From NCBI GenBank assembly GCA_045110695.1, contig JBGCGH010000034.1, positions 6,233 through 70,232 of the forward strand: a DNA stretch of 64,000 bases. Reading direction: 5' to 3'. A program made the position numbers and the translations under genes. Shown here piece after piece: positions 6,572 through 51,970 of the stretch. Under the pieces are notes generated by a model. That model searched no databases, was not told the origin of the DNA, and saw only the letters and a list, made by a program, of their open reading frames with translations. The stretch is from Bdellovibrionales bacterium. Lineage in GTDB: Bacteria > Bdellovibrionota > Bdellovibrionia > Bdellovibrionales > UBA840. Every line of letters starts with the position of its first letter. The first letter of the stretch is position 1.

Positions 6572-7813
6572 CTACTGTCTTTTTCCGAAAAGAGCACTAC
6601 CTATTCTTATAATAGTAGCACCTTCCTCCATCGCAACCTGAAAATCTCCACTCATTCCCATGGATAGCTCCAGCACTGGTGAAGACTTAAGCTCATTTTG
6701 TAGGCGAGTTTGTAGGCCCTTCAAAAGCTTAAAATAAGGCCTAGCTCCCTCGGGAGAATCTGTTTCCGGAGGGACAGTCATTAAACCGCAAAGATCTACA
6801 TTGCTCATCTCATCAGCAAGCCTTGCTAAACGAAAAAGTTCGGCCTGATCCGAGCCTGAGCGCCCTTCTTTCTGAGTAAAATCAACCTGTAGTAGAATTT
6901 TTTGAATCTTATCAATTTTTGAAGCCTCTTTCTGTATTTGTAGTAACAAAGACTCTCGATCTACACTCTGAATGAGTTCTACAAAGGCTATAATTTTTTT
7001 TACTTTGTTGGTTTGTAAGCCACCTATAAAATGCCATTTTAAATCCAGGTGCTTTAGAGCCTCGTACTTTTTCTCTAGCTCCTGTACATAGTTTTCACCA
7101 AAGATTTTTTGCCCCGACTTGAATGCAGCCTCTATCATTTCGACAGGCTTAGTCTTACTTACAGCTAGCATTTGTACTCTCTGCTCGGCAGTGGATATTT
7201 TCGACTCAAATTTTTGAATCCTTTGTGCCAAACCAAAGATACTTTTTCTTGTTAATAGCTCAGTAGTTTCCTCAATAGGTAAACCAATCACATTCTCTAG
7301 ACTTCCGTCGAGCTCTCTTACAAATTTACCCGCCTGAGACTGAATCCCGTAACTTCCCGCTTTATCCAACCAGTCCTCGGTATCCAGGTAATTTTCCAGC
7401 TCAAAATCACTAATTTCTCTGAAACGAACCACACTGGTAACTAGTCTAGTTTCAAAGTCACCAGTTTTAGAATTCATTAAGCATATCGATGACTTAACCT
7501 CGTGTGTATTCCCAGACAGCATTTTCATTACTTTCTTGGCTTCCGCGCGGTTGGCGGGCTTTCCTAATCTATGGTCTTGGTAAATGACCATTGTATCTGA
7601 GGCCAAAACAAAAACTTCTTTATTAAATAGCTCATATTGGTCCACTGAGGCACTAGCCTTTTGCCTAGCTAGATCCTCCAAAGCGGCATCCAAGCTAAGG
7701 TTTTTATCGAGTTTTTCCGATAACTTAGGTGGAAGTATCTCAAATTGATATCCTAAATTTTCGAGGATTTTTTTTCTTCGTGGGGATTGAGATGCCAAAA
7801 CAAACTGTGCCAT
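6572..7813 (-). CDS. fusion protein: Maf-like nucleotide pyrophosphatase (N) + YggS-family PLP-binding protein (C)
   Basis: N-terminal half: LASQSPRRKKIL...LASDTMV...DKAGSYGIQ (Maf). C-terminal half: LLAVSKTKP (PLP Lys)...FGENYVQE...WHFIGGLQTNKVK...ELSMGMSGDFQVAMEEGATIIRIGSALFG (YggS). Confidence 0.85.
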   Translation of the reverse strand: MAQFVLASQSPRRKKILENLGYQFEILPPKLSEKLDKNLSLDAALEDLARQKASASVDQYELFNKEVFVLASDTMVIYQDHRLGKPANRAEAKKVMKMLSGNTHEVKSSICLMNSKTGDFETRLVTSVVRFREISDFELENYLDTEDWLDKAGSYGIQSQAGKFVRELDGSLENVIGLPIEETTELLTRKSIFGLAQRIQKFESKISTAEQRVQMLAVSKTKPVEMIEAAFKSGQKIFGENYVQELEKKYEALKHLDLKWHFIGGLQTNKVKKIIAFVELIQSVDRESLLLQIQKEASKIDKIQKILLQVDFTQKEGRSGSDQAELFRLARLADEMSNVDLCGLMTVPPETDSPEGARPYFKLLKGLQTRLQNELKSSPVLELSMGMSGDFQVAMEEGATIIRIGSALFGKRQ

Positions 7814-7841
7814 AGCGCAGTTTTACAACCTTAGAGAAAAA

Positions 7842-8744
7842 ATGGGAAGTGCTGAATATTTATTAATTCTAGGATTGGTTCTTTTGGGAGCAGCTGTTTA
7901 CAATATCGTAACGGTAGTGCTTGGTAGTAGCCAAAGCGCAGATCTTGTTTGGGCCTCAGAAGAAGAGCCTGAGAAATCTAAAAACGGCTTCATTGAGTTC
8001 TCCCGCCCCCTTGCCCACTTCACCTCTATGGGATTAGCAAAAAAAGTGAAGTCTCTCACCTACCGTGAAAAAGTAAATAAGCAAATCAAAGTAGCAGGTT
8101 TATCTAGGGTCATTAACGTAGATGAGTTCATTGGGATTCAAGTATTCTGGGGTTTCTTCTTTCCACTGATCTCTTTGATAATCAATTTTACTTTCGAACT
8201 AGGTTTCTCGCCCCTTCTGATCTTGGGATTGAGTGCCTTTGGAATCTATGTCCCAAAAATGTATGCGGAACAAACAAAGGCAGCTCGTTATAAGAGTGTG
8301 ATTTTGGATCTTCCTTTCTTTATAGACCTTCTCGCTCTAGCGACTGAGGCTGGGCTAGAGTTTATAAATGCAATTCAACAAGTGGTTGATAAAGCAGGTA
8401 AAGATTCTGTATTAGCCAGTGAATTTGACTTAGTTTTACGTGATATAAAACTTGGACGCTCTAGACAGGAAGCAATGAGAGACATGGCGGCTCGCTTAGA
8501 CATCTCGGAAATAACAAGTTTTGTAGCAGTGATAATTGACTCAAGTGAAACCGGTGTGAGTATTGGTAAAGTACTTCAACAGCAAAGTGAGCAAATGAGA
8601 TTGGAGAGGTTCTCCAGAGCAGAAAAAGAAGGAGCCAAGGCTTCTCAGATGATGCTGATCCCTATGATGGTTTTTATAATGCCAGCCGTTTTTATAATGG
8701 TGTTTGGACCAGTGGTTCTACAGTTTTTAGGACAAGGTAATTGA
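7842..8744 (+). CDS. tadC: type II secretion system F-family / TadC-like Flp pilus platform protein
   Basis: 300 aa with N-terminal TM, central TM pair, T2SSF-like segment LPFFIDLLALATEAGLEFINAIQQV and C-terminal TM. Size and topology match TadB/TadC. Confidence 0.7.
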   Translation: MGSAEYLLILGLVLLGAAVYNIVTVVLGSSQSADLVWASEEEPEKSKNGFIEFSRPLAHFTSMGLAKKVKSLTYREKVNKQIKVAGLSRVINVDEFIGIQVFWGFFFPLISLIINFTFELGFSPLLILGLSAFGIYVPKMYAEQTKAARYKSVILDLPFFIDLLALATEAGLEFINAIQQVVDKAGKDSVLASEFDLVLRDIKLGRSRQEAMRDMAARLDISEITSFVAVIIDSSETGVSIGKVLQQQSEQMRLERFSRAEKEGAKASQMMLIPMMVFIMPAVFIMVFGPVVLQFLGQGN

Positions 8745-9094
8745 AAATGAGATTGATGAACAGAGACAAAAATTTAGCCCTTAGCGAGCATGTGCAATTG
8801 GCACAAAGCTTTTCTACGCGCTTGTTTGGTCTGATGGGTAAAAAAGATATGCGCTCGGTGGATGAGACTTACCTTTTTCAACCTTGTACAAGTATTCATA
8901 CTTGCTTCATGAATTTCCCCATTGATGTGATATTTTTAGACAAACAAAAAGTAGTTAAGAAAATATATTGGAATATGAAGCCGTGGCGATTTACAAAAAT
9001 TCATTGGAGCTGTGACGCAGCACTAGAGTTTAAATCCGGCTATTTAAACAAAACTATGATCGAGGAAGGAGATGCTTTGTATGTGGAGTCTTAA
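8741..9094 (+). CDS. DUF192 family protein
   Basis: RLFGLMGKK...FQPCTSIHTCFMNFPIDVIFLDKQKVV...ALEFKSGYL...GD matches the DUF192 pattern. 4-nt overlap with tadC-like gene. Confidence 0.7.
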   Translation: MKMRLMNRDKNLALSEHVQLAQSFSTRLFGLMGKKDMRSVDETYLFQPCTSIHTCFMNFPIDVIFLDKQKVVKKIYWNMKPWRFTKIHWSCDAALEFKSGYLNKTMIEEGDALYVES

Positions 9095-10697
9095 AGTATT
9101 ATCTGGTCCTCTTACTGGTCAGGAAATAAAGTTAAGAAGTGGTGAAAACAGTGTGGGTCGCCATCCGGAAAATAGTATACCTATTAAATCTGGAGGAGTG
9201 TCTAAGCATCATTGTAAATTTATGGTGAACGGAAATTCTGTTTCTGTGAGTGATCTTGGTTCTTCTAACGGAACCTTTGTAAATGGAATGCGGGTTCAAA
9301 ATTGTATATTACAACTTGGAGATAGAATTGGCATCCATGAGAACTTAGTAGAGTTGCAATATCAGATTGCACCTAATATGGGTATGGGTGGAAATGCAAA
9401 TATGGGATCCTCCGCTGAATGGAGTGGAAGCGCAGCACCTGATATGCATGCAAACCCAGGATTTGCAGCCGAAGAGATTCATGATCCCATTCAAATGAAC
9501 GCAGATGGACCACAGCTAGACTCCATTACCAAGCCACCAGAAAATATAAAAGAAACAATTGATCAATATGTTGAAAAAGTAATGCTTCCTGGTGTTTACA
9601 AACTGGCAGAGATTTTTGAATTTAGAATGGTAATTTTTGGAATGTTGATTACCTTAATATTAAGTATCACCCTACTTTCTGTGATACCTATGATCCAAAT
9701 TACTCAAGATACCATAATTAAAGAAAGTAGCCGACGAGCTGTCTCCATTGCCAGAAGTTTAGTTAAAGTAAACCAAAGCATTCTACAGAGAGGTATGAAA
9801 TCTCAGTTAACTACTAGTTTCGCTGAGAAGGAAGATGGAGTGCTTGCCGCCTTAATCATTAACGCCGAAGACGGTAGTGTAATAGCTCCGGCCAACCGAA
9901 TTGGAGCCTACAAAAACCTTCCATTCATACATAGTGCCAGAAAAAAAGGCGAAGAACATATTAAGAAGATAAGTGATGACCAGGTTGGCGCAAGTATCCC
10001 AATCAGAACCTATGATGCTAGTAGTGGGAGCTATGAAATTTCTAGTTATGCTGTTGTACTGTACTCTTTAGGAAACTTAGCCATGGACGATGGAAGAGCT
10101 ATAAGTCTCTTTATACAAACACTGGGAATGGCTCTTATAGTTGGTTTTATATTCTACTTTTTCATCTTTAAATTAGCAGAAAGACCATATCAGTATTTAA
10201 ATCGTCAAATTGATTTAGCAAACAAGGGTGAAATCATGAGTATTGAGCCTGAGTTTAATATGCCGGTAATGAAACCGCTCATTACAAACATAAACAATCT
10301 TGTAAATCAAGTCGCTAACTCCTCTGGAAATGATGATGGCCCCATGAGCTTCACTGACAGAAGTTTCGAAGTAGAGAATTTAGTAAAAGTGATCGGACAA
10401 GCCTGTATGGTAATAGACATAGACAAAAAAATCTTAGCCATGAACAGTGCTGCGGAGGAAATTACAAATGAATCTGCCTCCAGTCTAGTGGGTAGTAGTA
10501 CTGAAGCTATACTTGATGAAAGTCTGAAGCTGAACTTAGACGACCTCTTAGATAGAGTAGTGGCCGAATCCCATATGATTCAATCCAATACTTTAGAATT
10601 TAATGGACTAGAGATGGATGTCGATGCACAGGCCATTGGTGGCAGTGAAGGTATTGAGTATATTCTAGTCTGCATTAATGAAAAAGGAGGCTTCTGA
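9081..10697 (+). CDS. FHA-domain membrane protein (FHA, TM, extracytoplasmic region, TM, PAS-like C-terminus)
   Basis: FHA: VGRHPENSIPI...VSKHHCKF...VSDLGSSNGTFVNG. TM helices near aa 190 and aa 345. C-terminal MVIDIDKKILAMNSAAEEIT resembles a PAS N-cap. Start set to ATG 9081, 10 nt after GGAG. Confidence 0.8.
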   Translation: MWSLKVLSGPLTGQEIKLRSGENSVGRHPENSIPIKSGGVSKHHCKFMVNGNSVSVSDLGSSNGTFVNGMRVQNCILQLGDRIGIHENLVELQYQIAPNMGMGGNANMGSSAEWSGSAAPDMHANPGFAAEEIHDPIQMNADGPQLDSITKPPENIKETIDQYVEKVMLPGVYKLAEIFEFRMVIFGMLITLILSITLLSVIPMIQITQDTIIKESSRRAVSIARSLVKVNQSILQRGMKSQLTTSFAEKEDGVLAALIINAEDGSVIAPANRIGAYKNLPFIHSARKKGEEHIKKISDDQVGASIPIRTYDASSGSYEISSYAVVLYSLGNLAMDDGRAISLFIQTLGMALIVGFIFYFFIFKLAERPYQYLNRQIDLANKGEIMSIEPEFNMPVMKPLITNINNLVNQVANSSGNDDGPMSFTDRSFEVENLVKVIGQACMVIDIDKKILAMNSAAEEITNESASSLVGSSTEAILDESLKLNLDDLLDRVVAESHMIQSNTLEFNGLEMDVDAQAIGGSEGIEYILVCINEKGGF

Positions 10698-10708
10698 TTT
10701 CTAACGCG

Positions 10709-11638
10709 ATGAATGTTCAACCTACAGGTTACTTCAAGCTGAGTATAGCGACTGGCCCAGATCAGGGTGCAAGCTATGCTATTACACAGCCACGCGTAAA
10801 AATTGGCAGAAGCGCTCAGAACGATATAGTATTAACAGACCCAAAAGTATCAAGAGAACATGCTATCTTAAACCTGAAAAATAATGGGCTTTATATTCAG
10901 GGTTCCGGTGGAAAGAAAATAATCATAAATGGGCATGAACTAGACAATGGAATTTTAGCACCTGGATCTCAGGTTACTATCGGAGAAACCGTTTTTTCCG
11001 TGAGTCTTGAAGTACATCAGGCCCCTGTTGCATCGACCTACAAAAATTTAAATCAGCAGCAAGCTAGCCCTGATTTCTCAGCTGCTGAACCTGAAAAGTC
11101 TAAATTATTCTTTTATATTATACTTGGACTTGTAGTCGTTGTTGGTATCTTACTTTCACAGTCAGGATCTAAGGATGATGAGGAGTTTATCTTTAGAGAT
11201 GATGAAGCTATTCAAGAAGAAATTTTAAATTTAGAGCAAAGAAAAGATGAGCTGAAACGTGAATACTATAACAGTGGTAGAAATAGCCAGCAATACATTC
11301 AGGCACAAAGTAACTATAAGCAAGGTTTTAGAGAATATAGAGAGGCGAATTACAAAAGAAGTATTAATTATTTCACAGCAGCACTCTCACAGTTTCCAAA
11401 TCACAAGTTGGCAGAAAGATATTTAGTACAGGCACAAAGGAAGTTAGAAGAAGAAATCCAAACCAGCCTTGCTAGAGGCAATAGTTTAAAAGAACAAGGT
11501 AAATATCGCCAAGCGGTAGCTGAATATAGACATGTATTAATTCTTGTTTCTGACAAAACAAGTGTTGCCTTTAAAGAAGCCACTAGCCTGATGGAAGAAT
11601 GCATCTTAAAACTTAAAATCAAAGGAGGAAGCTTATGA
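10709..11638 (+). CDS. FHA-domain membrane protein with TPR-like C-terminus
   Basis: FHA: IGRSAQNDIVLTDPKVSREHA. One TM (FFYIILGLVVVVGILL). C-terminal TPR-like helices. Confidence 0.8.
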   Translation: MNVQPTGYFKLSIATGPDQGASYAITQPRVKIGRSAQNDIVLTDPKVSREHAILNLKNNGLYIQGSGGKKIIINGHELDNGILAPGSQVTIGETVFSVSLEVHQAPVASTYKNLNQQQASPDFSAAEPEKSKLFFYIILGLVVVVGILLSQSGSKDDEEFIFRDDEAIQEEILNLEQRKDELKREYYNSGRNSQQYIQAQSNYKQGFREYREANYKRSINYFTAALSQFPNHKLAERYLVQAQRKLEEEIQTSLARGNSLKEQGKYRQAVAEYRHVLILVSDKTSVAFKEATSLMEECILKLKIKGGSL

Positions 11639-13707
11639 TGAAACTCAAAATCTTCCTTCATGCTGATATGGTTCAAGACCTAACACTTCTAATCAACAAG
11701 CAATACGTTATAGGAAGAAACTCTGAATGTGATATTGTTTTAGATGATCCAAAGGTTTCTAGACAGCATGCAAAAATCTACTTCGATGGTAGTCAGTGGA
11801 ATATGGAGCTTATCTCTAGGTTCGGAAAACTTAAAAAAGAAGGCTTTGATGTTGAATCGACTAAAATAGCCGATGAAGATGAGTTCAGCATATCTACATT
11901 TAAACTGATTTTTATTAAATCTGAAGATAGCCAATATGGCTCTAGCAGCCAATCTCAAGTGAGTTATGGGGTATCTGATATTTCTGAATCACCTCAGTTT
12001 TCAATGAGCGTAGCAGATCACCAAATGCCTGAATCAGAAGATATTGATGATTCGAACAGTGATGTAGATGATTTTTCTGAATTTAGAGATGAAGCCTCAA
12101 GTGCGATTCAACTAGAAGATACGAATGCTGGCTTTGGCGATAGTACTGCCGTAAATGTATCTTTAGGAGAACCATTTTTAAGGATAATCTATAAAACTGG
12201 TAAAGAAGATATGTATCGTCTTGAAGGAAATCATTGGGTAATTGGAAGAAGTGAAAAAATCGATGTAAGAGTTAAAGATAGTAGATGTAGTAGAAAGCAC
12301 ATTGTAGTTACCAAAGAAGGAACCGAGTTTTTCTTGAAAGACTTAGGTAGTTCTAATGGAACCTCAGTAAACTCAAGTAAAATTGGAAGAGAACAAAAAA
12401 TAGGAATTCAATCTGGCGACGAAATATTAATCGGTGACAGTATTTTGCGATTTGAATTAAGAGATCCTAATTTTGAAGCAAAAATAAACCAGCTGCCAGT
12501 TGTCATCCATAACTCCCCTATCAAGTTTGGTAACCAAGACATCATACCTATAGGCTCACCAGGAGCAATGGTTCCCCAATCACCAGGTGGAGCCTTGGGA
12601 CAAATCATTCCACAAAGAGGAATGGGTAAAAACACTAAAAATAAAAAAGTAATATATATTGCCGTAGCCTTAATTGCCGTGGCCGGGGTGTTTGGTTTGT
12701 CTGATGGTAAACCAAAAAATGAAACTAAGAACAGCAAAGAGATGGCTAGTAAAAAATCGCCATGGGATGCCTTGAGTTTTGAGCAGCAGGAGTTTATTAA
12801 AGCTCGATACAATACTGCTTATAATTTTTATATTCAGGGAAGCTATGAATTAGCTCTTACGGAGGTAGAAAAAATACACTCTATTCTACCTTCTGGATAT
12901 GTAGACAAAGAACTCCCAGACAAAAACTCAAAGCAGTTAGAAAAATTTTCTAGAACAGGAATTGAGAGAGAAAGAGAATTAAATAGAATCGCTGTACAAA
13001 AAAAGCAGCAGAGACTTTTTCAAGAAAAACTAGATGAACAAATGCAGAGATGTATAAATTTAGGTGCTCAAGCATCTAGTGCTCAATTACAAGAGTGTTT
13101 CTCATTTATTTTAGAGAATCAACCCAATAACCCTACAGCACTACAGATGATTTCGGCTGCAAAAGAGAGAGAGCAAAATAGGCTTCTTATGGCACAACAA
13201 CGTGCTACGCAACAGAGGTTGGCAGGAAAAGGAAGCGCGCTATACAACCAAGCTGTAGCCATTGAACGATCTGGTGACTTTCTTGACGCGATTGAGGCTT
13301 ATCAGGTTCATATAAGATCTAATTTCCCTGACCCTAGGAATTTGAAATCGAAAAGTCGACAAGCCATTGCGCAGCTAAAAAGTGGAATTAAAACAAAAAC
13401 AAGTAGTCTATATAATGAGGCGATAACAGCCTATGAAAACGATAATCATAGAAAGGCCCTAGAGCTTCTACAAAAGCTTCTCGAGATTGATCCGAGCAAT
13501 ATTGAAGCCGAAGATAAATCTCGTGAAATTAGCTCAAAGCTATACATAAAATTAAAATCGATTTATGAAGATTCTATTCTATTTGAAAACCATGGTGAAA
13601 TCACAGAGGCAAAAAATGCTTGGCTAAAGATTAAGGACCAGGACATTAAAGGTGGACGATACTACAAGAAGGTTGTTATCAAGCTTAGAAAGTATGGAAT
13701 TGAATAG
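11635..13707 (+). CDS. double-FHA-domain membrane protein with long TPR-like C-terminal region
   Basis: FHA1: IGRNSECDIVLDDPKVSRQHAKI. Acidic linker. FHA2: IGRSEKIDVRVKDSRCSRKHI...DLGSSNGTSVN. TM VIYIAVALIAVAGVFGL, then TPR-like repeats. ATGATG overlap with the upstream gene, AGGAGG 6 nt upstream. Confidence 0.8.
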   Translation: MMKLKIFLHADMVQDLTLLINKQYVIGRNSECDIVLDDPKVSRQHAKIYFDGSQWNMELISRFGKLKKEGFDVESTKIADEDEFSISTFKLIFIKSEDSQYGSSSQSQVSYGVSDISESPQFSMSVADHQMPESEDIDDSNSDVDDFSEFRDEASSAIQLEDTNAGFGDSTAVNVSLGEPFLRIIYKTGKEDMYRLEGNHWVIGRSEKIDVRVKDSRCSRKHIVVTKEGTEFFLKDLGSSNGTSVNSSKIGREQKIGIQSGDEILIGDSILRFELRDPNFEAKINQLPVVIHNSPIKFGNQDIIPIGSPGAMVPQSPGGALGQIIPQRGMGKNTKNKKVIYIAVALIAVAGVFGLSDGKPKNETKNSKEMASKKSPWDALSFEQQEFIKARYNTAYNFYIQGSYELALTEVEKIHSILPSGYVDKELPDKNSKQLEKFSRTGIERERELNRIAVQKKQQRLFQEKLDEQMQRCINLGAQASSAQLQECFSFILENQPNNPTALQMISAAKEREQNRLLMAQQRATQQRLAGKGSALYNQAVAIERSGDFLDAIEAYQVHIRSNFPDPRNLKSKSRQAIAQLKSGIKTKTSSLYNEAITAYENDNHRKALELLQKLLEIDPSNIEAEDKSREISSKLYIKLKSIYEDSILFENHGEITEAKNAWLKIKDQDIKGGRYYKKVVIKLRKYGIE

Positions 13708-13708
13708 C

Positions 13709-14383
13709 ATGAAATTCACTCAGCATTCCTTTTATTCAAATGACTGCAACTTCCCTAAGGTAAACTCTAATTGGTCTGAAAAAGATGAGCTTTTGTTAAT
13801 AAATCTCGCCTGGGGTGATCGCTCTATTGTGGGCAATATCGAATCTCAGTTCTCGGACTACTATCTATCAACAAAAGATGATAATGAGGCCACCTCACCT
13901 TTTGAAAAAATTCTTCACTTACCTACGATGACAAACAACCTTATAATTGGGTTAAAATTGGTAAATGAAAGCGTATATAAAGAAACTAACAAAGAGCAGT
14001 TTGTGAACGGATTAGAGTCATTGGCCTTTCATCAGAACAAAGAGATGATGAGCTGGGTTTCTGTTGGTGAGTTTCAAGTATACGTGAAAAAAGCAAAAGC
14101 CAAATCACCTAGCCTATATTTCTCCAACTCTAACCTTGCATCGGAGTTTGATTCTGACCTACCACCGCTACCAAAAGATTTGGTAGGCACTCAAATGCAA
14201 GCGGATGTAAAGTATCAGCACCTATCTAAAACAAGTGGTGACACTGTAGTAATCGTTAAAAGTAATAAGAATCTATCTCATGCAATTGAGTCTGTAGATA
14301 AATTTGAAGATGCTTCTCAAATAGCAAAAAAAATAAATAAACTATATCCAGACACTAGCTTTTGGATAGGCCTTTTAGGCTAA
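13709..14383 (+). CDS. hypothetical protein, last gene of the Tad/FHA operon (possibly a degenerate PP2C/SpoIIE-like fold)
   Basis: Begins 2 nt after the preceding stop (alternative in-frame ATGs at 13694 and 13652). Spacing of conserved-looking blocks (LLLINLAWGD...GDTVVIVKSN...WIGLL) loosely recalls PP2C. Low-confidence fold guess. Confidence 0.5.
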   Translation: MKFTQHSFYSNDCNFPKVNSNWSEKDELLLINLAWGDRSIVGNIESQFSDYYLSTKDDNEATSPFEKILHLPTMTNNLIIGLKLVNESVYKETNKEQFVNGLESLAFHQNKEMMSWVSVGEFQVYVKKAKAKSPSLYFSNSNLASEFDSDLPPLPKDLVGTQMQADVKYQHLSKTSGDTVVIVKSNKNLSHAIESVDKFEDASQIAKKINKLYPDTSFWIGLLG

Positions 14384-14387
14384 ATAT

Positions 14388-16181
14388 CTATCTAAACCAG
14401 TTACTAGTAATAGATCGTTTTTTAACAATCTCTGCATATCTGGCATTACTTTCTGTTTGTAGAAAAAGATCCACCCAACTAGGTGATTGTAGATCGGTAC
14501 CTTGTCTCAGAGGCCATTTCAAATCTGCAACATAGTTCAATTTTTGTAACTCCAAACGATAGAGAAAACGATTGTACTCTTTAACAAATTTCTCTCTCCA
14601 ATACTCTTTTTGTTTTCCTTTTTTGGACTTCCAACGAACTAGATTTTCATAGAGAGCAAATCCACAACCAACATCAGGTTTAACACTTTCAGAAAAAAGT
14701 GCGACAAAACAAGGAGATAGATTTTTCGTAGAACCCAATGGAAGTCCCAAATTTTTATTTGCAACATAAACCCATTCCGGCCTATTTAACCGCAAACCTA
14801 GGCCTTTAAGTTTTTTCCAGCTCTGAGTTTGCAAAAAGTAACCAGCAAGTTGGCCACTTACTTCTTTTCCCGCACCATTTAGTGCTAAATACTGTAGCTC
14901 TCCTACAAAAATTGGATCGAAGCCATCAACTTGAATCTGTTTAATCACTTTTATTTTTTTGATTTCTTGATATTCGATATCAGCAAAGGCGGCAGTTCCA
15001 GTGGAATTAAAAATAGATGTTGCTAAATCTATCTCTACTGGAGATAGATTGCTTACCCCAGCCGGTATAGGTAACTGTTCTTTTTGATCAATCAGCGTGT
15101 TGTAGTAGATCACTGGATCGGAATTGAAAAATAGTTTTTTACCTATTAAGCTGGCATTTCTTATATTCGACAAGTTCTTCCACTTAGCCCACCCACTCTC
15201 CATTAAAATAGGTCGAGTATTATCCCAATTTACTTCCTCTTCTAGTAGAGTTGGTAATAGTGAAACTGCTTTCAATAATCCCTGGTCGTTCGGCTTTTGA
15301 CCTAGAATATCAAAAATCGTCATCCCCACATCGAGTAAGCTCACATTATGATCAATCTTCCAGGCTAAGCCTAAATCTCGTTTTTTTCTTGGAGGTTTAA
15401 TAAAAAGCCCCACCTGGGTGTTTTCTGAATGTAAATTTAAACTAGCAAACTCATTTCTTCTATCTACAGGGGTTCTACCGTTAACCCCAACAATAATTAC
15501 ATAGGAGTTATCCCAAGTTTTATTTCTTTTCATCTCTCGGAATAGCTTCGACCAGGAGCTTTTTAAATGGGACCACTGACTTTCTAAACTTCTTTCTCTT
15601 ACATTTCCAAGGTCGTCCGTTGTCGCTATAGTTGGAAAATCCATATCTACAAAATGTAAATGTGCAAAAAAAGAACGGCGCGATACTCGGCTCTTATGCC
15701 ATTTTACAAATCTATTTCTTAAAGTTCGAGCATCCGAGTATAGATTATTGTAGTTGGCAGGATGCTCAGAAAAAACCTCCATACCTTGATGAAGACCAGA
15801 ATGCCTCCAAACTGAGCCTCCCCCAGTGAAAAATGCGGTTCTATAACCTCTATCTAAAGCCAACTCGCCGATGGACCAAAATTCTTCTGCTAAAAAATGT
15901 TCAGCATTATTGGATATTCCCAGTTCAAAAGGGTTTTTTGCTGTATACATTGCGCTAAGTGCAACCTTAGATAAGGGCGAAGGCGTGTAAGCATGGGTAT
16001 ATCTGACAAACTCACTACATATTGTGTTTACGCTAAACTCATTATAGTCTTCTTCTAGACAAGTGATCAGAGAGGTTGGTAATTTTTCTGCACTAATAAT
16101 CATTATATTGGACTTAACCGGACCACCTGGATTACAAGCCAGCAATAGAATCAATAAAAGACCATACCTAAGTCGAAACAC
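14388..16181 (-). CDS. sulfatase-like / alkaline-phosphatase-superfamily lipoprotein
   Basis: Lipobox-like LLLACN. N-terminal IMIISAEKLP...HAYTPSPLSKVALSAMYT...FFTGGG...HFVDMDFP layout resembles sulfatase-like hydrolase/transferases, but no canonical C/S-x-P-x-R. Confidence 0.5.
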   Translation of the reverse strand: MFRLRYGLLLILLLACNPGGPVKSNIMIISAEKLPTSLITCLEEDYNEFSVNTICSEFVRYTHAYTPSPLSKVALSAMYTAKNPFELGISNNAEHFLAEEFWSIGELALDRGYRTAFFTGGGSVWRHSGLHQGMEVFSEHPANYNNLYSDARTLRNRFVKWHKSRVSRRSFFAHLHFVDMDFPTIATTDDLGNVRERSLESQWSHLKSSWSKLFREMKRNKTWDNSYVIIVGVNGRTPVDRRNEFASLNLHSENTQVGLFIKPPRKKRDLGLAWKIDHNVSLLDVGMTIFDILGQKPNDQGLLKAVSLLPTLLEEEVNWDNTRPILMESGWAKWKNLSNIRNASLIGKKLFFNSDPVIYYNTLIDQKEQLPIPAGVSNLSPVEIDLATSIFNSTGTAAFADIEYQEIKKIKVIKQIQVDGFDPIFVGELQYLALNGAGKEVSGQLAGYFLQTQSWKKLKGLGLRLNRPEWVYVANKNLGLPLGSTKNLSPCFVALFSESVKPDVGCGFALYENLVRWKSKKGKQKEYWREKFVKEYNRFLYRLELQKLNYVADLKWPLRQGTDLQSPSWVDLFLQTESNARYAEIVKKRSITSNWFR

Positions 16182-16377
16182 ACGTTCCCCTTTTTTATAA
16201 AATCAGAATAAAAAATATGTGTAGCTCTGGCAAGGAATGGCTTTAAGCAAAAGCACCTATTTAGTCTAGCTTTACAGCAGTTTAAAGTATTTTTCTAAAT
16301 CTGCAGTGCTTGCCCTTGGCCGCGAATAATAGGATAATAAAATGGTCTTAATTCTATTCCACAGCTAAGGAGAATTC

Positions 16378-17007
16378 ATGTTAACGGAAAAGATATTTAA
16401 TGCAGCTCAATCTGGTGCCGAGGGTGTACTTTGGTTTTTAATATTTTTAAGTATTATAAGTGTAGGAATCATGATTGAAAGATATCTAACACTAGGAAAG
16501 TACATTGGTAGAACTAAGAAAATCCAAAAACGACTTAATGATGTCCTTCAATCTAACTCATTTGATGAATTAGAAGATATCAGTAGAGACAGAGAGTCTT
16601 TAGAAGGCAGAGCACTTGCTTACGGCCTACGCCACGTTAAAGAATCTGGTAAAGATGGTTTAGACAATATTTTCAATTCTTTCGCCATTATGGAAAAACC
16701 TAAACTTGAAAAGTCATTGAACTTCTTAGCAACCGTTGGTTCAAATGCACCATTCTTGGGTTTGTTGGGAACAGTTCTTGGTATAATGAAGGCGTTCAAT
16801 GACCTTGCTACTTCCCAGGGAGATGCTTCCGCAGTTATGACCGGTATTGCTGAAGCACTTGTAGCAACGGCTGTGGGTTTATTTGTAGCGATGCCAGCTG
16901 TTGTTGCTTACAACTACTTTCAGAAAAAGGTGAAAGTTTCTCTTTCTGGAATAGAGGCAGTGAAAGAACTTTGCATCGCCTACGCATCTTCTAAAAAAGG
17001 ATCTTAG
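16378..17007 (+). CDS. exbB: MotA/TolQ/ExbB proton-channel family protein
   Basis: Three TM helices. LATVGSNAPFLGLLGTVLGIMKAF and TGIAEALVATAVGL motifs. Confidence 0.85.
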   Translation: MLTEKIFNAAQSGAEGVLWFLIFLSIISVGIMIERYLTLGKYIGRTKKIQKRLNDVLQSNSFDELEDISRDRESLEGRALAYGLRHVKESGKDGLDNIFNSFAIMEKPKLEKSLNFLATVGSNAPFLGLLGTVLGIMKAFNDLATSQGDASAVMTGIAEALVATAVGLFVAMPAVVAYNYFQKKVKVSLSGIEAVKELCIAYASSKKGS

Positions 17008-17010
17008 AAT

Positions 17011-17412
17011 ATGGGTGCATTTAACGATAAAGACGAAGATGCCATAGCTGATATAAATATCACTCCGTTTGTTGATATTATATTGGTGGTTCTAATTATT
17101 TTTATGGTTACTACTCCCATAATCATGAACCCAAGTATTAAAATTAAACTACCTAAAGCGGCAAGTGGGGAAGAAACCACTCAAACTAAACTAAATGTAA
17201 GCATCTCTCAGAAAGGAGAGGTACTTCTAAATGGTAAGCAAGTTAGTGACGAAGAGCTCACCACTCAGTCTAAAGCCTTAAAGGGGCAAAACCCCGAGGT
17301 CCAGGCGATCATTGCGGCCGATAAAGAAGTTGCCCACGGTGTGGTTATTCGAATCATTGATTTGATCAAACTTGCTGGAATACAAAAATTTGCAATAAGT
17401 ACGGAGAAATAA
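17011..17412 (+). CDS. exbD: ExbD/TolR biopolymer transport protein
   Basis: INITPFVDIILVVLIIFMV TM, then ADKEVAHGVVIRIIDLIKLAG periplasmic domain. Confidence 0.85.
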   Translation: MGAFNDKDEDAIADINITPFVDIILVVLIIFMVTTPIIMNPSIKIKLPKAASGEETTQTKLNVSISQKGEVLLNGKQVSDEELTTQSKALKGQNPEVQAIIAADKEVAHGVVIRIIDLIKLAGIQKFAISTEK

Positions 17413-17413
17413 A

Positions 17414-18802
17414 ATGCAAGTGATGTCTGTTGAGCATAAGGCTTTGACTATAAACCTTGATCCCCCTGTTTACGGAACCTTAGCTGAGATCGGAGCAGGG
17501 CAAGAAGTTGCTAGAAACTTATTTGTTGCCGGAGCAGCCTCTGGAACCATCGCCAAATCCATGTCTGCCTACGACATGCAAGTGAGTGATGCTATCTACG
17601 GTAAAGAAAACTCTAAAAGATATGTTTGTGAATCCCGGCTAATGAAAATGTTAGATCATGAATATCAGCTAATCATTGACCGCCTTACAGATAGGGCCAG
17701 TAGTTCTACATTTTTTGCTTTTGCTGATACGGTTGCCGCAAGTGCATATGGAAGTGGAAAACCAGGCCATGGTTGGATTGGTATTCGTTTTCAACGTCAA
17801 CCAGGTGGTACATTTAACGATATCGTGATCCACATTAAAATGCACGACCCAAACGCTCAACTCCAGGCTCAAGCCATTGGTAAGCTTGGGGTAAGTTTAA
17901 TTTACGGTGCCACTCAGCAGCTTAATGCAGAGGTTTTAGTCGATCAGTTACTAGATGAAGTTGGAAAGAAAAGGTTAGAAATTGATGTTATTAAATTCTC
18001 AGGACCTGATTACAAAGCCGTTGATAACAGATTAATCGCTCTTAAATTAGTAGAAGAGGGCTTTACTGATGCCTCCCTATTTATGCCTGATGGTGAGATT
18101 TTACAGATCGCTGATTTTATGTATAAGAAACCTGTAATGGTTCAGCGTGGGAGTTTTGAGCCTGTAACTAATATTCATTGGGACCTTCAAAGCTCTGGGC
18201 TTGAGCATTTTGAAAAGGAAATCCCTGAGAAAAAAGACGATATCTTGGTTCTTCTCGAGATGACAGTTCACAACCTTACTGGTGAAGAAAAGGTGGATCG
18301 AAAGAACTTTTTAGATCGCGTGGAAGCCATAGCACAGCTCAATCAACCCGTCTTAATCTCCAACTTTTTTCTATTTTACCAACTTAGAGAGTTCCTACAA
18401 AACTACACCAATCAACCAATTCGTATGGTTCTAGGAGCTAGTCTTTTAGGCAAGCTCTTTGAGAGGGAACACTACAATGATCTCACTGGTGGCATCCTCC
18501 AAGGCTTTGGCTGCCTAGTAAAGGGAGATACTAAATTGTATATCTACCCTCAGAAAAGAAATAATGAGCTAATGACATCTGAAAATTCATCCCCAGAGGG
18601 AGACCTAGCTCTACTATATGACTATATAAAAAAACGTGGGAAATTTGTAGATCTCACCGGTTGTAACTTAGACCAAGAAAGTCCAAAAAGTTCTGAGATC
18701 ATCGAGATGATTCAAAACAATAATCCTAGTTGGGAAAAATACGTTCCAGCAGAAGTCACTAAAGCCATCAAAGAGAAAAAACTTTTTGGCTTCAATGCAT
18801 AA
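17414..18802 (+). CDS. conserved-looking hypothetical cytoplasmic protein (462 aa)
   Basis: ATG 2 nt after the exbD stop. No TM or signal. N-terminal YGTLAEIGAGQEVARNLF. Family not recognised. Confidence 0.6.
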   Translation: MQVMSVEHKALTINLDPPVYGTLAEIGAGQEVARNLFVAGAASGTIAKSMSAYDMQVSDAIYGKENSKRYVCESRLMKMLDHEYQLIIDRLTDRASSSTFFAFADTVAASAYGSGKPGHGWIGIRFQRQPGGTFNDIVIHIKMHDPNAQLQAQAIGKLGVSLIYGATQQLNAEVLVDQLLDEVGKKRLEIDVIKFSGPDYKAVDNRLIALKLVEEGFTDASLFMPDGEILQIADFMYKKPVMVQRGSFEPVTNIHWDLQSSGLEHFEKEIPEKKDDILVLLEMTVHNLTGEEKVDRKNFLDRVEAIAQLNQPVLISNFFLFYQLREFLQNYTNQPIRMVLGASLLGKLFEREHYNDLTGGILQGFGCLVKGDTKLYIYPQKRNNELMTSENSSPEGDLALLYDYIKKRGKFVDLTGCNLDQESPKSSEIIEMIQNNNPSWEKYVPAEVTKAIKEKKLFGFNA

Positions 18803-36146: not shown

Positions 36147-36881
36147 TCAGGACTCGGAAACAGTTAAGCCTACGATGGAGATATTATCATCCCCTCCAGC
36201 TTGGTTACTTTCATAGATCATGCGATCTGGCCATTCTTTAGTATCGAGAAGAAGACAAATTTCATTAATACGATCATTATCTACCATTCCATAAAGGCCG
36301 TCTGAGCAAAGTAAAAATTTAGCCCCTGGCTTTAACTTTCTTTCGAAGACGTCCACGGTAACTTCCGGTTCGTATCCAACACTTCGAGTGATAATATTTT
36401 TACCCTCTACCCTATCGATATCCTCAGGTTTAATTATTCCAGCGCGCATTTGCTCATAAACCAAAGAGTGGTCCTCTGTAATTTGCCAGAGATGAACTCC
36501 CTCCATAGTGTAGCACCGTGAATCACCTACATTACCTATGTAAATGTAGTCATCCACTCTGAGAGCGAGAACCATAGTAGTTCCCATTCCTTTTAGCTTC
36601 TTATTTTCATTACTCTTATCAAAGATCCTTTTGCAGCTCTCATGGAAAACTCGTTCGATCAGCTCCCTAGGAGTTTCTTTCTGCTTCGGTTTTTGACGCC
36701 ACTTTTCTACAAGTTCGCTAACGGTGTCCACGGCAATTTTTGAAGCTACTTCTCCGCCCTTGTGTCCACCCATTCCGTCGGCGACGACAAACAAACCCAA
36801 GGCCTCTGATAGATATATCGAGTCTTGGTTGGCAGCACGCTTGATGCCCTTATCCGTCTTTCCCCAGGCTTGAACTTTCAT
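36147..36881 (-). CDS. PP2C-family Ser/Thr protein phosphatase
   Basis: NQDS...VADGMGGHKGGEVAS...GTT...SDGL...GGDDNIS motifs. Confidence 0.85.
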   Translation of the reverse strand: MKVQAWGKTDKGIKRAANQDSIYLSEALGLFVVADGMGGHKGGEVASKIAVDTVSELVEKWRQKPKQKETPRELIERVFHESCKRIFDKSNENKKLKGMGTTMVLALRVDDYIYIGNVGDSRCYTMEGVHLWQITEDHSLVYEQMRAGIIKPEDIDRVEGKNIITRSVGYEPEVTVDVFERKLKPGAKFLLCSDGLYGMVDNDRINEICLLLDTKEWPDRMIYESNQAGGDDNISIVGLTVSES

Positions 36882-44118: not shown

Positions 44119-44565
44119 CTAAACTGAGCCGTTTATATAGCTAGTTTCTACTTTTCTAATGTAATTCCCCCAGGACTGGAGAGAAGCGCGAAACTCATCA
44201 TCAATAATATCAGCTAACCCGATAAAATCTTCATGGCCAAATGCTTTTAACATGGCATTCAAGGAAAGCTTAAAGCTCATTTCCGTTTCATCCCAAAGAC
44301 CCGATTGAGATCTAGAGGCATTTTTCAATCGTAAATCCTTCTCAGCAACCATTTGCAAAGTATATAAAGCCGCCATCAAACTTTGAGTTACCGACAATTG
44401 CTCGTCAAAAACTTCGCTCGCAGATTTTTTTTCGTTCATTTGATAGGCTTCGACCGTGGCATCTAAATCAGAAATAAGATTTTTACAGAGTTCTTTACCA
44501 GAAGCAAAAGTTTCGATTATTTCCTTTTTTACATCGCTCTGCTCATTTACTAAGTTCTGTTCCAT
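44119..44565 (-). CDS. hypothetical helical protein, last gene of the sigma-54 TPR/GT9 operon
   Basis: Overlaps the upstream GT9 gene by 23 nt. No family recognised. Confidence 0.45.
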   Translation of the reverse strand: MEQNLVNEQSDVKKEIIETFASGKELCKNLISDLDATVEAYQMNEKKSASEVFDEQLSVTQSLMAALYTLQMVAEKDLRLKNASRSQSGLWDETEMSFKLSLNAMLKAFGHEDFIGLADIIDDEFRASLQSWGNYIRKVETSYINGSV

Positions 44566-46042
44566 CTCTTACTTCCTTTTCCGTTTCAATATCTAAGTCT
44601 TCACCTAGATATATGGAGTTAATTTTTGCTAGGTTTTCATGTATCTGAGTATAGGCTTCTACAATCTGCTCTTTGTTACCGGGCCCCACTCTCAACTTTT
44701 CTGTTTGATACCAGGAAACCAAAGGTTGTAGTTCAGGAACCATATCCACTAAGTTATCAACTAAATCATCCACTCGATCTAAAATCATACGATTGGATTC
44801 ACTATCTTCCACCTTTAAGATTTGCAATAACTGCTGAACAGCAATCACGTTCAATTCTTGAAGCTGGTTTAAACCCTCTACGAACCTAATGTCGTTTGGA
44901 ACAGGAAAATCCGTACCTAGATATATGGCTCTCACCAAGTTCCAACCAAAATCATCTGAGCTCTCTTGGGCAGTAATATATAGCTCCGTGGGTTGATCCA
45001 ACACAGCCACTCGGTCCGTGGGTACATCATTACTTAAGTGCCCAAGGATTTCCTCAACAATAGTATCTGATCCAATATCATCAAAACTCTTCCCAAAAAG
45101 TATACGGGAATTTTCTGCCTTTGGTCCCGTTTCAAAAAAGTTAACGTAGGAGTTACTTAAGTTGAAGCTTCTCACGTTCTCCATACTAGCGATATGGAGA
45201 GGGCCAGAATCACAGCCAATATAGAGCTCAGCATTACGAATCAAAGGAAATAGATCTAGCAGATCCGTTTTACCCACTAGATTTATGATAGAATCAGACA
45301 TGGATTGAAGGTAAATATAGTCTGCAATCTCTTTTTCTTCCGGAGAACCAACTAAAGCCACTCTTCCTTTGTAAGAGTTTTTTAACCTATTAACTACAGA
45401 TACCCATTTCTCTTTTGATAAAGCTTTACCTGAATCACTCGCACCTACATGAATAACCAAGTAAGGGTCTGAGCTTAAATAGCTTTGAATCATTTCTGGA
45501 AGGTCATGTTCAAACTCCAAGCGATAGTCACTAGATTGCAGGGCAACACCTGCAACCTCAGAAAATAAATCCATTAGATGAAAACGATTCTGTCTAGAGA
45601 TGCCCACCTGTGCGTAAAAATAGGCTGAAGCATCGTCAGGAATCTTAAGAAACCCATCATCAAATCTTGTATAGCCAGAAACAATCGTTTGTTCGTTTGA
45701 AATACAGCTAACTAAGAAGGAACTTGCCGGTGAGAAGCTCAAATTTATGACCTTATCATAAGTGCCATTTAGTTGATCCAATACATCAGATAATGCACTT
45801 TCTGCCTGCTCTAAAGATTCATCTATACTGTTGTCTTCGTTCAAAAGTGGCTCGAAATACTTTTTAGAATCCCATTCCATTACATTTACCAAGTTTTCAA
45901 TAGGCTTACAGGCGGCTCTAAATCTCGGGCGAACCATGAGGTCGATTTCAGCCTCAGGATTTTCACGCCTTAAAGCTTGAATACTAGGGTAAGTTGTAAT
46001 TATATCCCCTAATCTAGCGAGTTGGACGATTAAAATTCTCAT
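44543..46042 (-). CDS. GT9-family (heptosyltransferase-type, GT-B) glycosyltransferase with ~170-aa C-terminal helical extension
   Basis: N-terminus MRILIVQLARLGDIITTYPSIQALRR. C-domain motif LYIGCDSGPLHIASM (GT9 D-S-G-x-x-H). Extension beyond about aa 330. Confidence 0.7.
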   Translation of the reverse strand: MRILIVQLARLGDIITTYPSIQALRRENPEAEIDLMVRPRFRAACKPIENLVNVMEWDSKKYFEPLLNEDNSIDESLEQAESALSDVLDQLNGTYDKVINLSFSPASSFLVSCISNEQTIVSGYTRFDDGFLKIPDDASAYFYAQVGISRQNRFHLMDLFSEVAGVALQSSDYRLEFEHDLPEMIQSYLSSDPYLVIHVGASDSGKALSKEKWVSVVNRLKNSYKGRVALVGSPEEKEIADYIYLQSMSDSIINLVGKTDLLDLFPLIRNAELYIGCDSGPLHIASMENVRSFNLSNSYVNFFETGPKAENSRILFGKSFDDIGSDTIVEEILGHLSNDVPTDRVAVLDQPTELYITAQESSDDFGWNLVRAIYLGTDFPVPNDIRFVEGLNQLQELNVIAVQQLLQILKVEDSESNRMILDRVDDLVDNLVDMVPELQPLVSWYQTEKLRVGPGNKEQIVEAYTQIHENLAKINSIYLGEDLDIETEKEVRDGTELSK

Positions 46043-46187
46043 TTGGCATCTGCTCCTTAATTAATTCTTTTAATAGTAAAAGTCTTTTGGCTCTTTGGTT
46101 CACACCACTGGCTATAATTTCTCTTTTGGTTGTGTCATTCACCTGATCAAACAATCTATTCAACCTGTGCTTTGCTTCAGAATTCAT
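46014..46187 (-). CDS. possible small ORF (57 aa) translationally coupled between the two GT9-like genes
   Basis: ATG shares an ATGA overlap with the stop of the 532-aa gene (46184-46187). Reads MNSEAKHRLNRLFDQVNDTTKREIIASGVNQRAKRLLLLKELIKEQ... and overlaps the next gene start by 29 nt. Below the ORF-track size cut-off. Confidence 0.3.
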   Translation of the reverse strand: MNSEAKHRLNRLFDQVNDTTKREIIASGVNQRAKRLLLLKELIKEQMPNENFNRPTR

Positions 46188-51727: not shown

Positions 51728-51970
51728 TTCGTCCTCCTGACGACAAATGCACTTCCTGTGCGCATATTTATTATCTCAAAAAAACCTAGAAACAGTGAGT
51801 CAATAATTCGTCAAAATCAATTAACCTGCTTTGGTACAATCTAGGAAGGATTTTCCGTTTTCAATAGGAGCACCTAGAGGGTCTAAAATTTGTTCCCTCA
51901 CGGGAGCCTATTTTATAGATTCTATTTAATAACTCGACCTTCCTCTGTTTCATGGATAAGATCAAAGTCT

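Follow-up and report, generated by a model that had tools for sequence, protein, structure and literature searches.

The window considered here, the whole 64-kb stretch of a Bdellovibrionales contig that was analysed, carries between positions 7842 and 14383 six genes that begin with tadC, which encodes the platform subunit of a Tad-type pilus machine. All six open reading frames (ORFs) lie on the + strand at the coordinates listed below; they are co-directional and tightly packed, and the span is probably a single operon in which the platform subunit is combined with a dedicated accessory module. The first-pass annotation had read these genes as a TadC-like protein, a DUF192 protein, three FHA membrane proteins with four FHA domains, and an unknown protein. 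Pfam and hydropathy analysis bear out this content, while the label of the last gene has to be replaced, as described below. Domain matches are to Pfam and were scored against its gathering scores (20.7 bits for FHA, PF00498, which genes 3, 4 and 5 all pass); transmembrane (TM) segments were predicted from hydropathy.

7842–8744 (+): gene 1, TadC, inner-membrane platform subunit of a Tad/Kil-type pilus machine; 300 aa, single T2SSF domain
8741–9094 (+): gene 2, DUF192 protein; 117 aa, Pfam DUF192 (PF02643) 65.6 bits against a cut-off of 27
9081–10697 (+; alternative start 9072): gene 3, Bd0472 orthologue; 538 aa, FHA 62.4 bits, PAS_4 23.2 bits
9081–9362 (+): FHA domain of gene 3; model strands in residues 2–94, with GR, S..H and S.NG invariant
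10362–10682 (+): predicted cytoplasmic PAS domain of gene 3; PAS-like helix/strand pattern in model residues 428–534, weak Pfam PAS_4 match (8.2e-5)
10709–11638 (+): gene 4, Bd0473 orthologue; 309 aa, FHA 48.0 bits, Yop-YscD_cpl 66.9 bits, TPR_2 27.7 bits
11635–13707 (+): gene 5, Bd0474 orthologue; 690 aa, FHA 106.1 bits (two stretches), TPR_2 37.2 bits
13709–14383 (+): gene 6, Bd0475 orthologue; 224 aa, no TM segment, cytoplasmic, PP2C-derived by orthologue profile

Layout and products of the tadC operon

Recomputation of the junctions between genes 1 to 6 gave −4, −14, +11, −4 and +1 nt, and tadC is separated from a divergent 413-aa gene by 28 bp, which reproduces the first-pass description of six same-strand genes. 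Two of these values depend on the choice of start codon. The −4 junction between genes 1 and 2 requires a TTG start at 8741, and an ATG two codons downstream would change it to +2. The −14 junction between genes 2 and 3 refers to the ATG at 9081 and becomes −23 nt if gene 3 starts at the ATG at 9072. The 9081 start is the better of the two, because the alignment with the B. bacteriovorus orthologue begins there and an identical database protein (P0279) has 538 aa. A promoter and terminator scan of positions 7400–14700 remained at chance level: 16 promoter-like sites were counted where 19.5 were expected, and 7 terminator-like ones where 5.2 were.

Gene 1 matches T2SSF (PF00482) at 3.6e-18 and 66.1 bits, against a cut-off of 25.2, in one stretch (residues 160–288), and has four TM segments. 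This profile match places it in the T2SS-F family, as the first-pass annotation had supposed. Over its full 300 aa the protein is 56% identical to B. bacteriovorus Bd0470, itself the reciprocal-best match of Myxococcus KilH and Caulobacter CC_2940. A TadC-family hidden Markov model (HMM) gave 445 bits for the window gene versus only 21–43 bits for the TadB paralogues of two related loci (L088 and L089), and by these scores the gene is assigned to the TadC orthogroup and not to TadB. It is also the sole match of this HMM in the window. When secretin, TadZA, TadB, TadA-like ATPase, RcpC, prepilin peptidase and Hanks kinase domain sequences were searched against the whole window by tblastn, nothing was found at E ≤ 0.01, in line with the earlier statements that TadA ATPase, TadB and secretin genes are missing near the module and that the window holds no kinase. 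An ORF at 51890–53689, picked up as T2SSE-like by a Walker-A regular expression, was rejected since Pfam identifies it as an ABC transporter.

Several TadC orthologues (P0138, P0139, P0144, P0147, P0152 and others) have an extra N-terminal part of 130–235 aa, and such extended TadC proteins are encoded at L084 (10001–11602) and L086 (38–1483). P0147, from a Bacteriovoracaceae metagenome-assembled genome (MAG), is the only named N-terminally extended TadC. A fusion of FHA and TadC of the Rosetta-stone type was considered for these relatives and rejected, the extension being without any Pfam domain.

Gene 2 overlaps the tadC stop by 4 nt with its TTG start; the DUF192 gene characteristically overlaps or abuts the tadC stop codon. 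It has neither a signal peptide nor a TM segment by hydropathy, and is therefore probably cytoplasmic; the signal peptide is missing from all aligned DUF192 members. Profile matches of DUF192 in the PDB are limited to the uncharacterised entries 3m7a and 3pjy, and literature searches on DUF192 together with pili, and on Bd0471, returned no functional information. The simplest role, which is a guess, would be that of a cytoplasmic factor associated with TadC.

The three FHA proteins are anchored in the membrane, gene 3 by two TM segments and genes 4 and 5 by one each. The AlphaFold2 model of gene 3 (mean pLDDT, the predicted local distance difference test score, 86.5) begins with the FHA domain (1–94), followed by a disordered linker, a long TM helix and a periplasmic alpha/beta domain (~246–329); the second TM helix then runs into a long cytoplasmic helix that leads to the C-terminal PAS domain (428–534). 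In Foldseek searches the part from the membrane to the PAS domain found its best match in a model of the WalK sensor kinase (9a5d_A, E 7.8e-14, 395 columns). The FHA domain is closest to the phosphothreonine-binding FHAs of GarA, OdhI, FhaA and Bdellovibrio DgcB, with YscD ranking lower. The protein stops after the PAS domain, and neither HisKA (DHp) nor HATPase_c was matched in it by Pfam. As modelled, gene 3 thus resembles the input module of a sensor kinase in which an FHA domain stands in place of the transmitter. Within the FHA domain, G26, R27, S41, H44, S61, N63 and G64 are invariant in 54 homologues.

Genes 4 and 5 are bitopic and carry lysine-rich segments before the TM segment, which therefore places their FHA domains in the cytoplasm and their TPR domains in the periplasm. 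Gene 4 is predicted to consist of one FHA domain, a TM segment at residues 133–151 and a TPR domain; its TPR_2 score lies just above the cut-off of 27, with all individual stretches below it. Gene 5 is predicted to have two FHA domains (~21–95 and ~193–274), a TM segment at 339–357 and a long TPR-containing domain. Each of the four FHA domains has the arginine of the GR motif and the serine of the S..H motif conserved in at least 90% of the orthologues. Conservation of the Asn-Gly loop is limited to the FHA of gene 3 and the second FHA domain of gene 5 (FHA2), which retains GR, SR and S.NGT. FHA1 of gene 5 retains GR and SR.H without NG; in the gene 4 FHA, GR and SR are conserved at 90% or more and E and H at 70% or more, and the NG loop is missing in the window protein. 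All three proteins also match Yop-YscD_cpl (54.5, 66.9 and 91.4 bits for genes 3, 4 and 5, gathering score 33.2). Against the type III secretion system (T3SS) SctD equivalog TIGR02500 they score 29.0, 27.4 and 20.2 bits, with a cut-off of 86. Gliding-motility GltG (NCBIfam NF033760) was rejected as an identity: the scores are 32–38 bits against a cut-off of 650, and the FHA region alone aligns.

Gene 6 alone has no Pfam match. A profile built from 31 orthologues chosen by synteny, however, finds PP2C phosphatases in the PDB, with tPphA at E 7.1e-6, Stp1 at 3.9e-4 and PppA (6jkv) weakly at 1.3. The alignment is collinear over profile positions 77–205 (129 of the 224) and spans the motifs L..a..AN, VG and LG...GD.LLL. 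When the 31 orthologues are scanned singly against Pfam at E ≤ 1, SpoIIE is matched by 8 of them, PP2C by one and PP2C_2 by one (best 3.2e-4), and the gene 6 member of L086 reaches 21.1 bits, under the 25-bit cut-off. The profile further matches the genes that occupy this position in L075 (2.8e-14), L090 (1e-14), L078 and L074, and the L075 protein exceeds the Pfam gathering scores of PP2C, SpoIIE and PP2C_2. On this sequence evidence gene 6 is a PP2C descendant, an assignment that replaces the first-pass label of an unknown protein.

The metal-binding residues follow the lineages. The aspartates of motifs 1 and 2 are kept in the L075, L074, L078 and L086 (Bacteriovoracaceae) proteins, and that of motif 8 in two of these. 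None of the 57 Bdellovibrionales-type members in the joint alignment, the window protein and Bd0475 among them, has Asp at motif 1, 2 or 8; the window protein has V, L and S instead. The loss of these three key residues suggests that gene 6 has lost catalysis and become a pseudophosphatase. We found no paper that describes Bd0475 as PP2C-derived or gives functional information on it.

The window itself contains the stand-alone PP2C phosphatase reported in the first pass at 36147–36881 (−), which scores 66.4 bits against PP2C_2 and has intact metal motifs (NQD, DGMGG, GDS, SDG and DDN); it could supply the activity lost by gene 6. In one Bdellovibrionales genome (L052, 231–899) a gene 6 homologue lies on the same strand ~10 kb upstream of tadC and not at the end of the module. 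In L085, the double-FHA gene is followed by a gene for an HD/HDOD-domain protein (15978–16727) and not by the PP2C-like gene.

Conservation of the module and its linkage to Tad genes

Related loci were sampled by a TadC-alignment scan of species-representative genomes, which contributed 80, and by contig look-ups, which added 7, for a total of 87. Genes were counted with family HMMs, and the denominators are the loci with enough downstream sequence. DUF192 is the most constant companion, lying directly 3' of TadC in 86 of 87 loci. The other genes are present in 77/78 (gene 3), 75/75 (gene 4), 68/69 (gene 5) and 58/66 (gene 6) loci. The proposed test for co-occurrence of the FHA genes with Tad components is positive, with FHA genes following TadC in 68–77 of the 69–78 loci with room. 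The order of the module is kept down to 36% TadC identity, while the flanking genes vary from locus to locus. The same order is found in MAGs assigned to Bacteriovoracaceae (one), Oligoflexia (one) and unclassified 'Deltaproteobacteria', and also in loci whose flanks are unrelated to those of the window. The arrangement is not a product of chance, because nearly every related locus examined repeats the same gene order.

Core Tad genes directly adjoin the module in two distant lineages. Locus L089 encodes, on one strand, a secretin, TadZA (CbiA + T2SSE), TadB, a DPBB protein, TadC, DUF192, an FHA protein, an FHA/TPR protein and a double-FHA/TPR protein, and continues with a TPR protein, a TadA-like ATPase of 376 aa and a Hanks kinase with TM segment and TPR (Pkinase 139.9 bits). 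In L090, TadC, DUF192, three FHA genes and the PP2C-like gene are followed by small ORFs for Flp-like prepilins with the Flp/TadE G....EY motif, a Peptidase_A24 prepilin peptidase, RcpC and a secretin. A third locus, L088 (62% GC), has RcpC, TadB, TadC and one FHA gene, which is the published Myxococcus order. The split arrangement of the Bdellovibrionales is a fragment of a formerly contiguous Tad locus, as L089 and L090 have the module contiguous with the core Tad genes.

The L089 kinase (14059–15897) has a kinase-TM-TPR layout like that of the FHA-TM-TPR proteins and an unusual catalytic loop, HRDVSPQN, with Ser for the usual Lys; a BLAST search with its kinase domain found nothing in the window or in the other loci. 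A short (~376 aa) TadA/CpaF-like T2SSE ATPase lies just 3' of the FHA module in two distant lineages (L074, 16338–17471; L089, 12743–13873). B. bacteriovorus is reported to have an additional, isolated tadA paralogue, of which this ATPase may be the counterpart.

The closest characterised counterpart is the B. bacteriovorus locus. The window operon and Bd0470–Bd0475 have the same order, with identities of 56, 33, 35, 31–35, 29 and 24%, and the proteins on the B. bacteriovorus contig have the published lengths of Bd0473, Bd0474 and Bd0475 (386, 674 and 228 aa). Based on order, neighbours, matching lengths and pairwise identity, the window holds the orthologue of this operon. Bd0470 has been named tadC, and attachment to prey, killing and rounding are all impaired in its transposon mutant; in the same transposon-sequencing work, the mutant of Bd0474, the double-FHA gene, attached to prey and failed to kill or round it (Duncan et al. 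2019, PMC6561027). The link to predation that had been suspected from the window sequence thus has support in B. bacteriovorus. Bd0470–Bd0475 form one operon, the interaction of Bd0474 with the TPR protein Bd0075 was confirmed by two-hybrid assay, and an interaction of Bd0473 with Bd0475 was predicted by AlphaFold-Multimer with an interface score (ipTM) of 0.60 (PMC12034629).

A July 2026 preprint assigns tadC to a 'tadC locus' of its own, in the vicinity of FHA, TPR and PAS genes, and reports a TadA-type ATPase, TadB, secretin, RcpC and Flp pilins in B. bacteriovorus (bioRxiv 10.64898/2026.07.08.737194), which agrees with the first-pass suggestion that the other Tad parts are encoded elsewhere. 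According to the same work, the core tad genes could not be deleted and tadC is essential, the predator depends on the machine to stay attached to prey, to remodel it and to invade it, and the invasive pole is where TadC-mCherry is located together with the secretin and RomR. Bd0470 is listed as orthologue of Myxococcus KilH, and MXAN_4649 (FHA) and MXAN_4648 (FHA+TPR) adjoin KilH (Seef et al. 2021, PMC8460266), as the first-pass annotation had stated in outline. In a 2025 review the FHA proteins still figure as 'promising candidates' with an undefined role, and neither FHA nor Tad proteins come up in the main text of the paper on the RomR proximity network.

A putative accessory layer of the Tad platform

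Gene identities, predicted topologies, collinear orthology and linkage to Tad genes provide the ground on which the function of the module can be discussed. We consider it likely that TadC works here together with a membrane-spanning accessory layer, which links information from the envelope or from prey contact to the Tad platform through FHA interactions. The rest of the machine (TadB, the TadZA ATPase, secretin and pilins) would be encoded elsewhere in the genome. The three FHA proteins would place phosphothreonine-binding domains under the inner membrane, beside the TadB/TadC platform, and on the periplasmic side would expose a sensor-like domain in gene 3 and TPR domains in genes 4 and 5, the latter possibly binding periplasmic partners such as a TPR protein of the Bd0075 type. 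A cue from the envelope or from contact with prey could thereby be coupled to the assembly of the Tad machine or to its activity after attachment. The circuit may descend from a Hanks-kinase/PP2C/FHA threonine-phosphorylation pathway; in the Bdellovibrionales, gene 6, without metal-binding aspartates, probably persists as a non-catalytic binding partner of gene 4, and DUF192 would be a constant, probably translationally coupled, cytoplasmic partner of TadC.

Several observations weigh against this accessory layer. Binding of phosphopeptides by the FHA domains and their contact with TadB, TadC or TadZA are inferred, as are phosphothreonine dependence and the direction of signalling, and the FHA of gene 4 and FHA1 of gene 5, without the Asn-Gly loop, could be phospho-independent. 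A kinase adjoins the module in one locus only (L089), and none was found in the window or within 10 kb on either side of the Bdellovibrionales loci. The profile matches behind the PP2C assignment of gene 6 are of modest strength: hhalign of its profile with the window's own PP2C gave a probability of 4%, though the same GD..ll.s motif was aligned, and an AlphaFold2 model built from two sequences (pLDDT 38.9) is unusable as fold evidence. TadB, TadA, secretin and pilins of the window organism are assumed from its relatives, the sequence covered being the 64-kb window. Finally, the Bd0474 mutant attaches to prey whereas the tadC mutant does not (PMC6561027), so that the step on which the FHA proteins act may come later, or their target may be a different one.

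The same FHA proteins might instead be ring or scaffold subunits of the SctD/YscD/PrgH kind, which oligomerise independently of phosphorylation as a cage around TadB and TadC and take no part in signalling. Genes 3, 4 and 5 do pass the Yop-YscD_cpl gathering score, and MXAN_4649 beside KilH is annotated as PrgH-like (PMC8460266), yet the TIGR02500 scores of 29 or less stay far under the cut-off of 86, and instead of ring-building motifs the proteins have TPR repeats or a PDC/PAS-like sensor domain in the periplasm. The two FHA domains without an Asn-Gly loop would suit a scaffold, whereas the gene 3 FHA, structurally nearest to GarA, OdhI, FhaA and DgcB with YscD lower, belongs to a family in which Arg, Ser, His and Asn are invariant. 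Likewise, a phosphatase that reads as dead in the window lineage, with no kinase nearby, would fit a purely structural role, but module relatives carry a PP2C with the first two metal motifs intact, and one relative carries a Hanks kinase. Taken together, a scaffold of this kind appears unlikely.

The difference between the mutants leads to another alternative, in which the FHA and PP2C-like genes form a signalling module that shares the tadC operon while controlling something else, such as type IVa pili, gliding motility, cyclic di-GMP signalling through DgcB, or the remodelling of the prey envelope after attachment. The normal attachment of the Bd0474 mutant would fit (PMC6561027), as would the Bd0474 partner Bd0075, which is not a Tad component (PMC12034629), and B. 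bacteriovorus DgcB likewise relies on an FHA domain, with its kinase yet to be found. It is difficult to reconcile with such a module, though, that the linkage to TadC is near-absolute over wide divergence despite changing flanks, that L089 and L090 have it embedded among core Tad genes, and that FHA genes are embedded in the Myxococcus kil clusters, where the Kil ATPase itself has an FHA domain (PMC8460266). We regard a separate target as quite improbable. Still further from what the data indicate is inherited synteny without shared function, in which TadC merely came to lie next to genes unrelated to it in some ancestor among the Bdellovibrionota. In its favour, the loci sampled belong mostly to one order, so that the counts are phylogenetically non-independent; against this stand junctions that overlap or are very short, the retention of the module where the flanks differ entirely, predation phenotypes of both the TadC and the Bd0474 mutants (PMC6561027), and the KilH–FHA adjacency of Myxococcus as a separate, differently arranged case. 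Inherited synteny is accordingly disfavoured and seems very remote.

Within the favoured reading of an accessory layer on the Tad platform, a more specific proposal is put forward tentatively, as possible and somewhat short of probable. The module would be the remnant of a dedicated Hanks kinase/PP2C/FHA circuit gating a predatory Tad/Kil pilus, that is, the Tad counterpart of the type VI secretion system (T6SS) PpkA-PppA-Fha1 pathway. Gene 3 would then be a transmitter-less envelope sensor, the PP2C would in the Bdellovibrionales have turned into a pseudophosphatase binding subunit, and DUF192 would be an obligatory and hitherto unrecognised partner of TadC. The Bd0470–Bd0475 operon in B. bacteriovorus and the Kil-system proposal are already known, and the window adds no new type of system. 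New are the counts that show how widely the module is conserved, the finding that L089 and L090 keep it joined to the Tad core, in L089 together with a Hanks kinase, the recognition that gene 3 is built like a sensor, and the assignment of gene 6 as a probable pseudophosphatase.

How Bdellovibrio-like predators recognise prey and pass from attachment to invasion is still open in the field, and the Tad machine was recently shown to be essential there. The genes beside tadC are obvious candidates for a control layer and are named as uncharacterised in the current literature. The comparison sharpens this hypothesis in that the accessory module equals TadC in conservation, accompanies the Tad core in distant lineages, and includes a PP2C-derived protein as well as, in one relative, a Hanks kinase.

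Neighbouring genes and comparison with known systems

The divergent gene upstream of tadC (6572–7813, −) is a fusion of Maf and a YggS-type pyridoxal phosphate-binding protein (Ala_racemase_N) in one 413-aa ORF; Maf and YggS are separate adjacent genes in B. bacteriovorus (L001) and in a marine relative (L002). On the other side, a 597-aa sulfatase-family gene (14388–16181, −) converges on gene 6, with the stop codons 4 nt apart and no terminator-like hairpin fitting between them, and this neighbour is retained in L001 and L002. It is followed at 16378–18802 (+) by an ExbB/ExbD pair and a conserved 462-aa ORF without Pfam match, which has a 460-aa equivalent in the same place in L002. Unrelated to the tadC operon are two adjacent large glycosyltransferase family 9 genes and a FliD flagellar cap gene (44543–47782, −, and 50375–51727, −).

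Among known systems, Bd0470–Bd0475 is matched in the number of genes, their order, domain content and protein sizes, as well as in the position of tadC apart from the main tad locus. The neighbours agree too, with maf, yggS, proC and divIVA upstream and the sulfatase and exbBD genes downstream. In contrast, identities are only 24–56%, gene 4 of the window is ~80 aa shorter, maf and yggS are fused, and the window stems from an uncultured, low-GC (~39%) Bdellovibrionales MAG that is known from sequence, with P0001, P0121 and P0279 as 100%-identical database proteins.

Kil cluster 2 of Myxococcus xanthus (MXAN_4648–4652) is likewise part of a Tad-derived predation machine, in which KilH is the reciprocal-best match of Bd0470 and has FHA and FHA+TPR genes beside it; FHA domains are over-represented in the Kil system, which includes KilD and KilF (PMC8460266). 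The comparison of MXAN_4648 and MXAN_4649 with genes 3–5 covered the FHA domain. Unlike the window gene, KilH stays beside KilG (TadB) and KilB, and no DUF192 or PP2C-like gene is listed there. Moreover, the Kil ATPase has an FHA fusion and not a TadZ fusion, and the Kil machine assembles at lateral contact sites and not at the pole.

In canonical Tad/Cpa loci (Aggregatibacter tad, Caulobacter cpa), TadC is also a single-domain T2SSF platform protein that pairs with TadB, but tadB adjoins tadC, and these loci are not known to have FHA, DUF192 or PP2C-like genes. Canonical TadD is an outer-membrane pilotin lipoprotein, which the FHA-TM-TPR proteins of the window recall in repeat type only. With SctD (YscD/PrgH) of the T3SS, the window proteins share an N-terminal cytoplasmic FHA-like domain, a single TM segment, a periplasmic domain and the Yop-YscD_cpl match, whereas their TIGR02500 scores are well under the cut-off and their periplasmic parts are TPR or sensor-like. 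SctD is also not known to conserve the phosphothreonine-binding residues, which in the window are complete in the gene 3 FHA and in FHA2 of gene 5.

The T6SS threonine-phosphorylation pathway of Pseudomonas aeruginosa comprises the PpkA kinase, the PP2C phosphatase PppA, the Fha1 scaffold and the TagQRST sensors. There, a Hanks kinase, a PP2C and an FHA protein are encoded with an envelope machine fired by contact, and all three classes occur in relatives of the module. The window differs in that the machine is a Tad pilus, that four FHA domains are present instead of one, membrane-anchored and with predicted periplasmic TPR or sensor domains, and that the window itself has no linked kinase and the phosphatase appears catalytically degenerate in its lineage.

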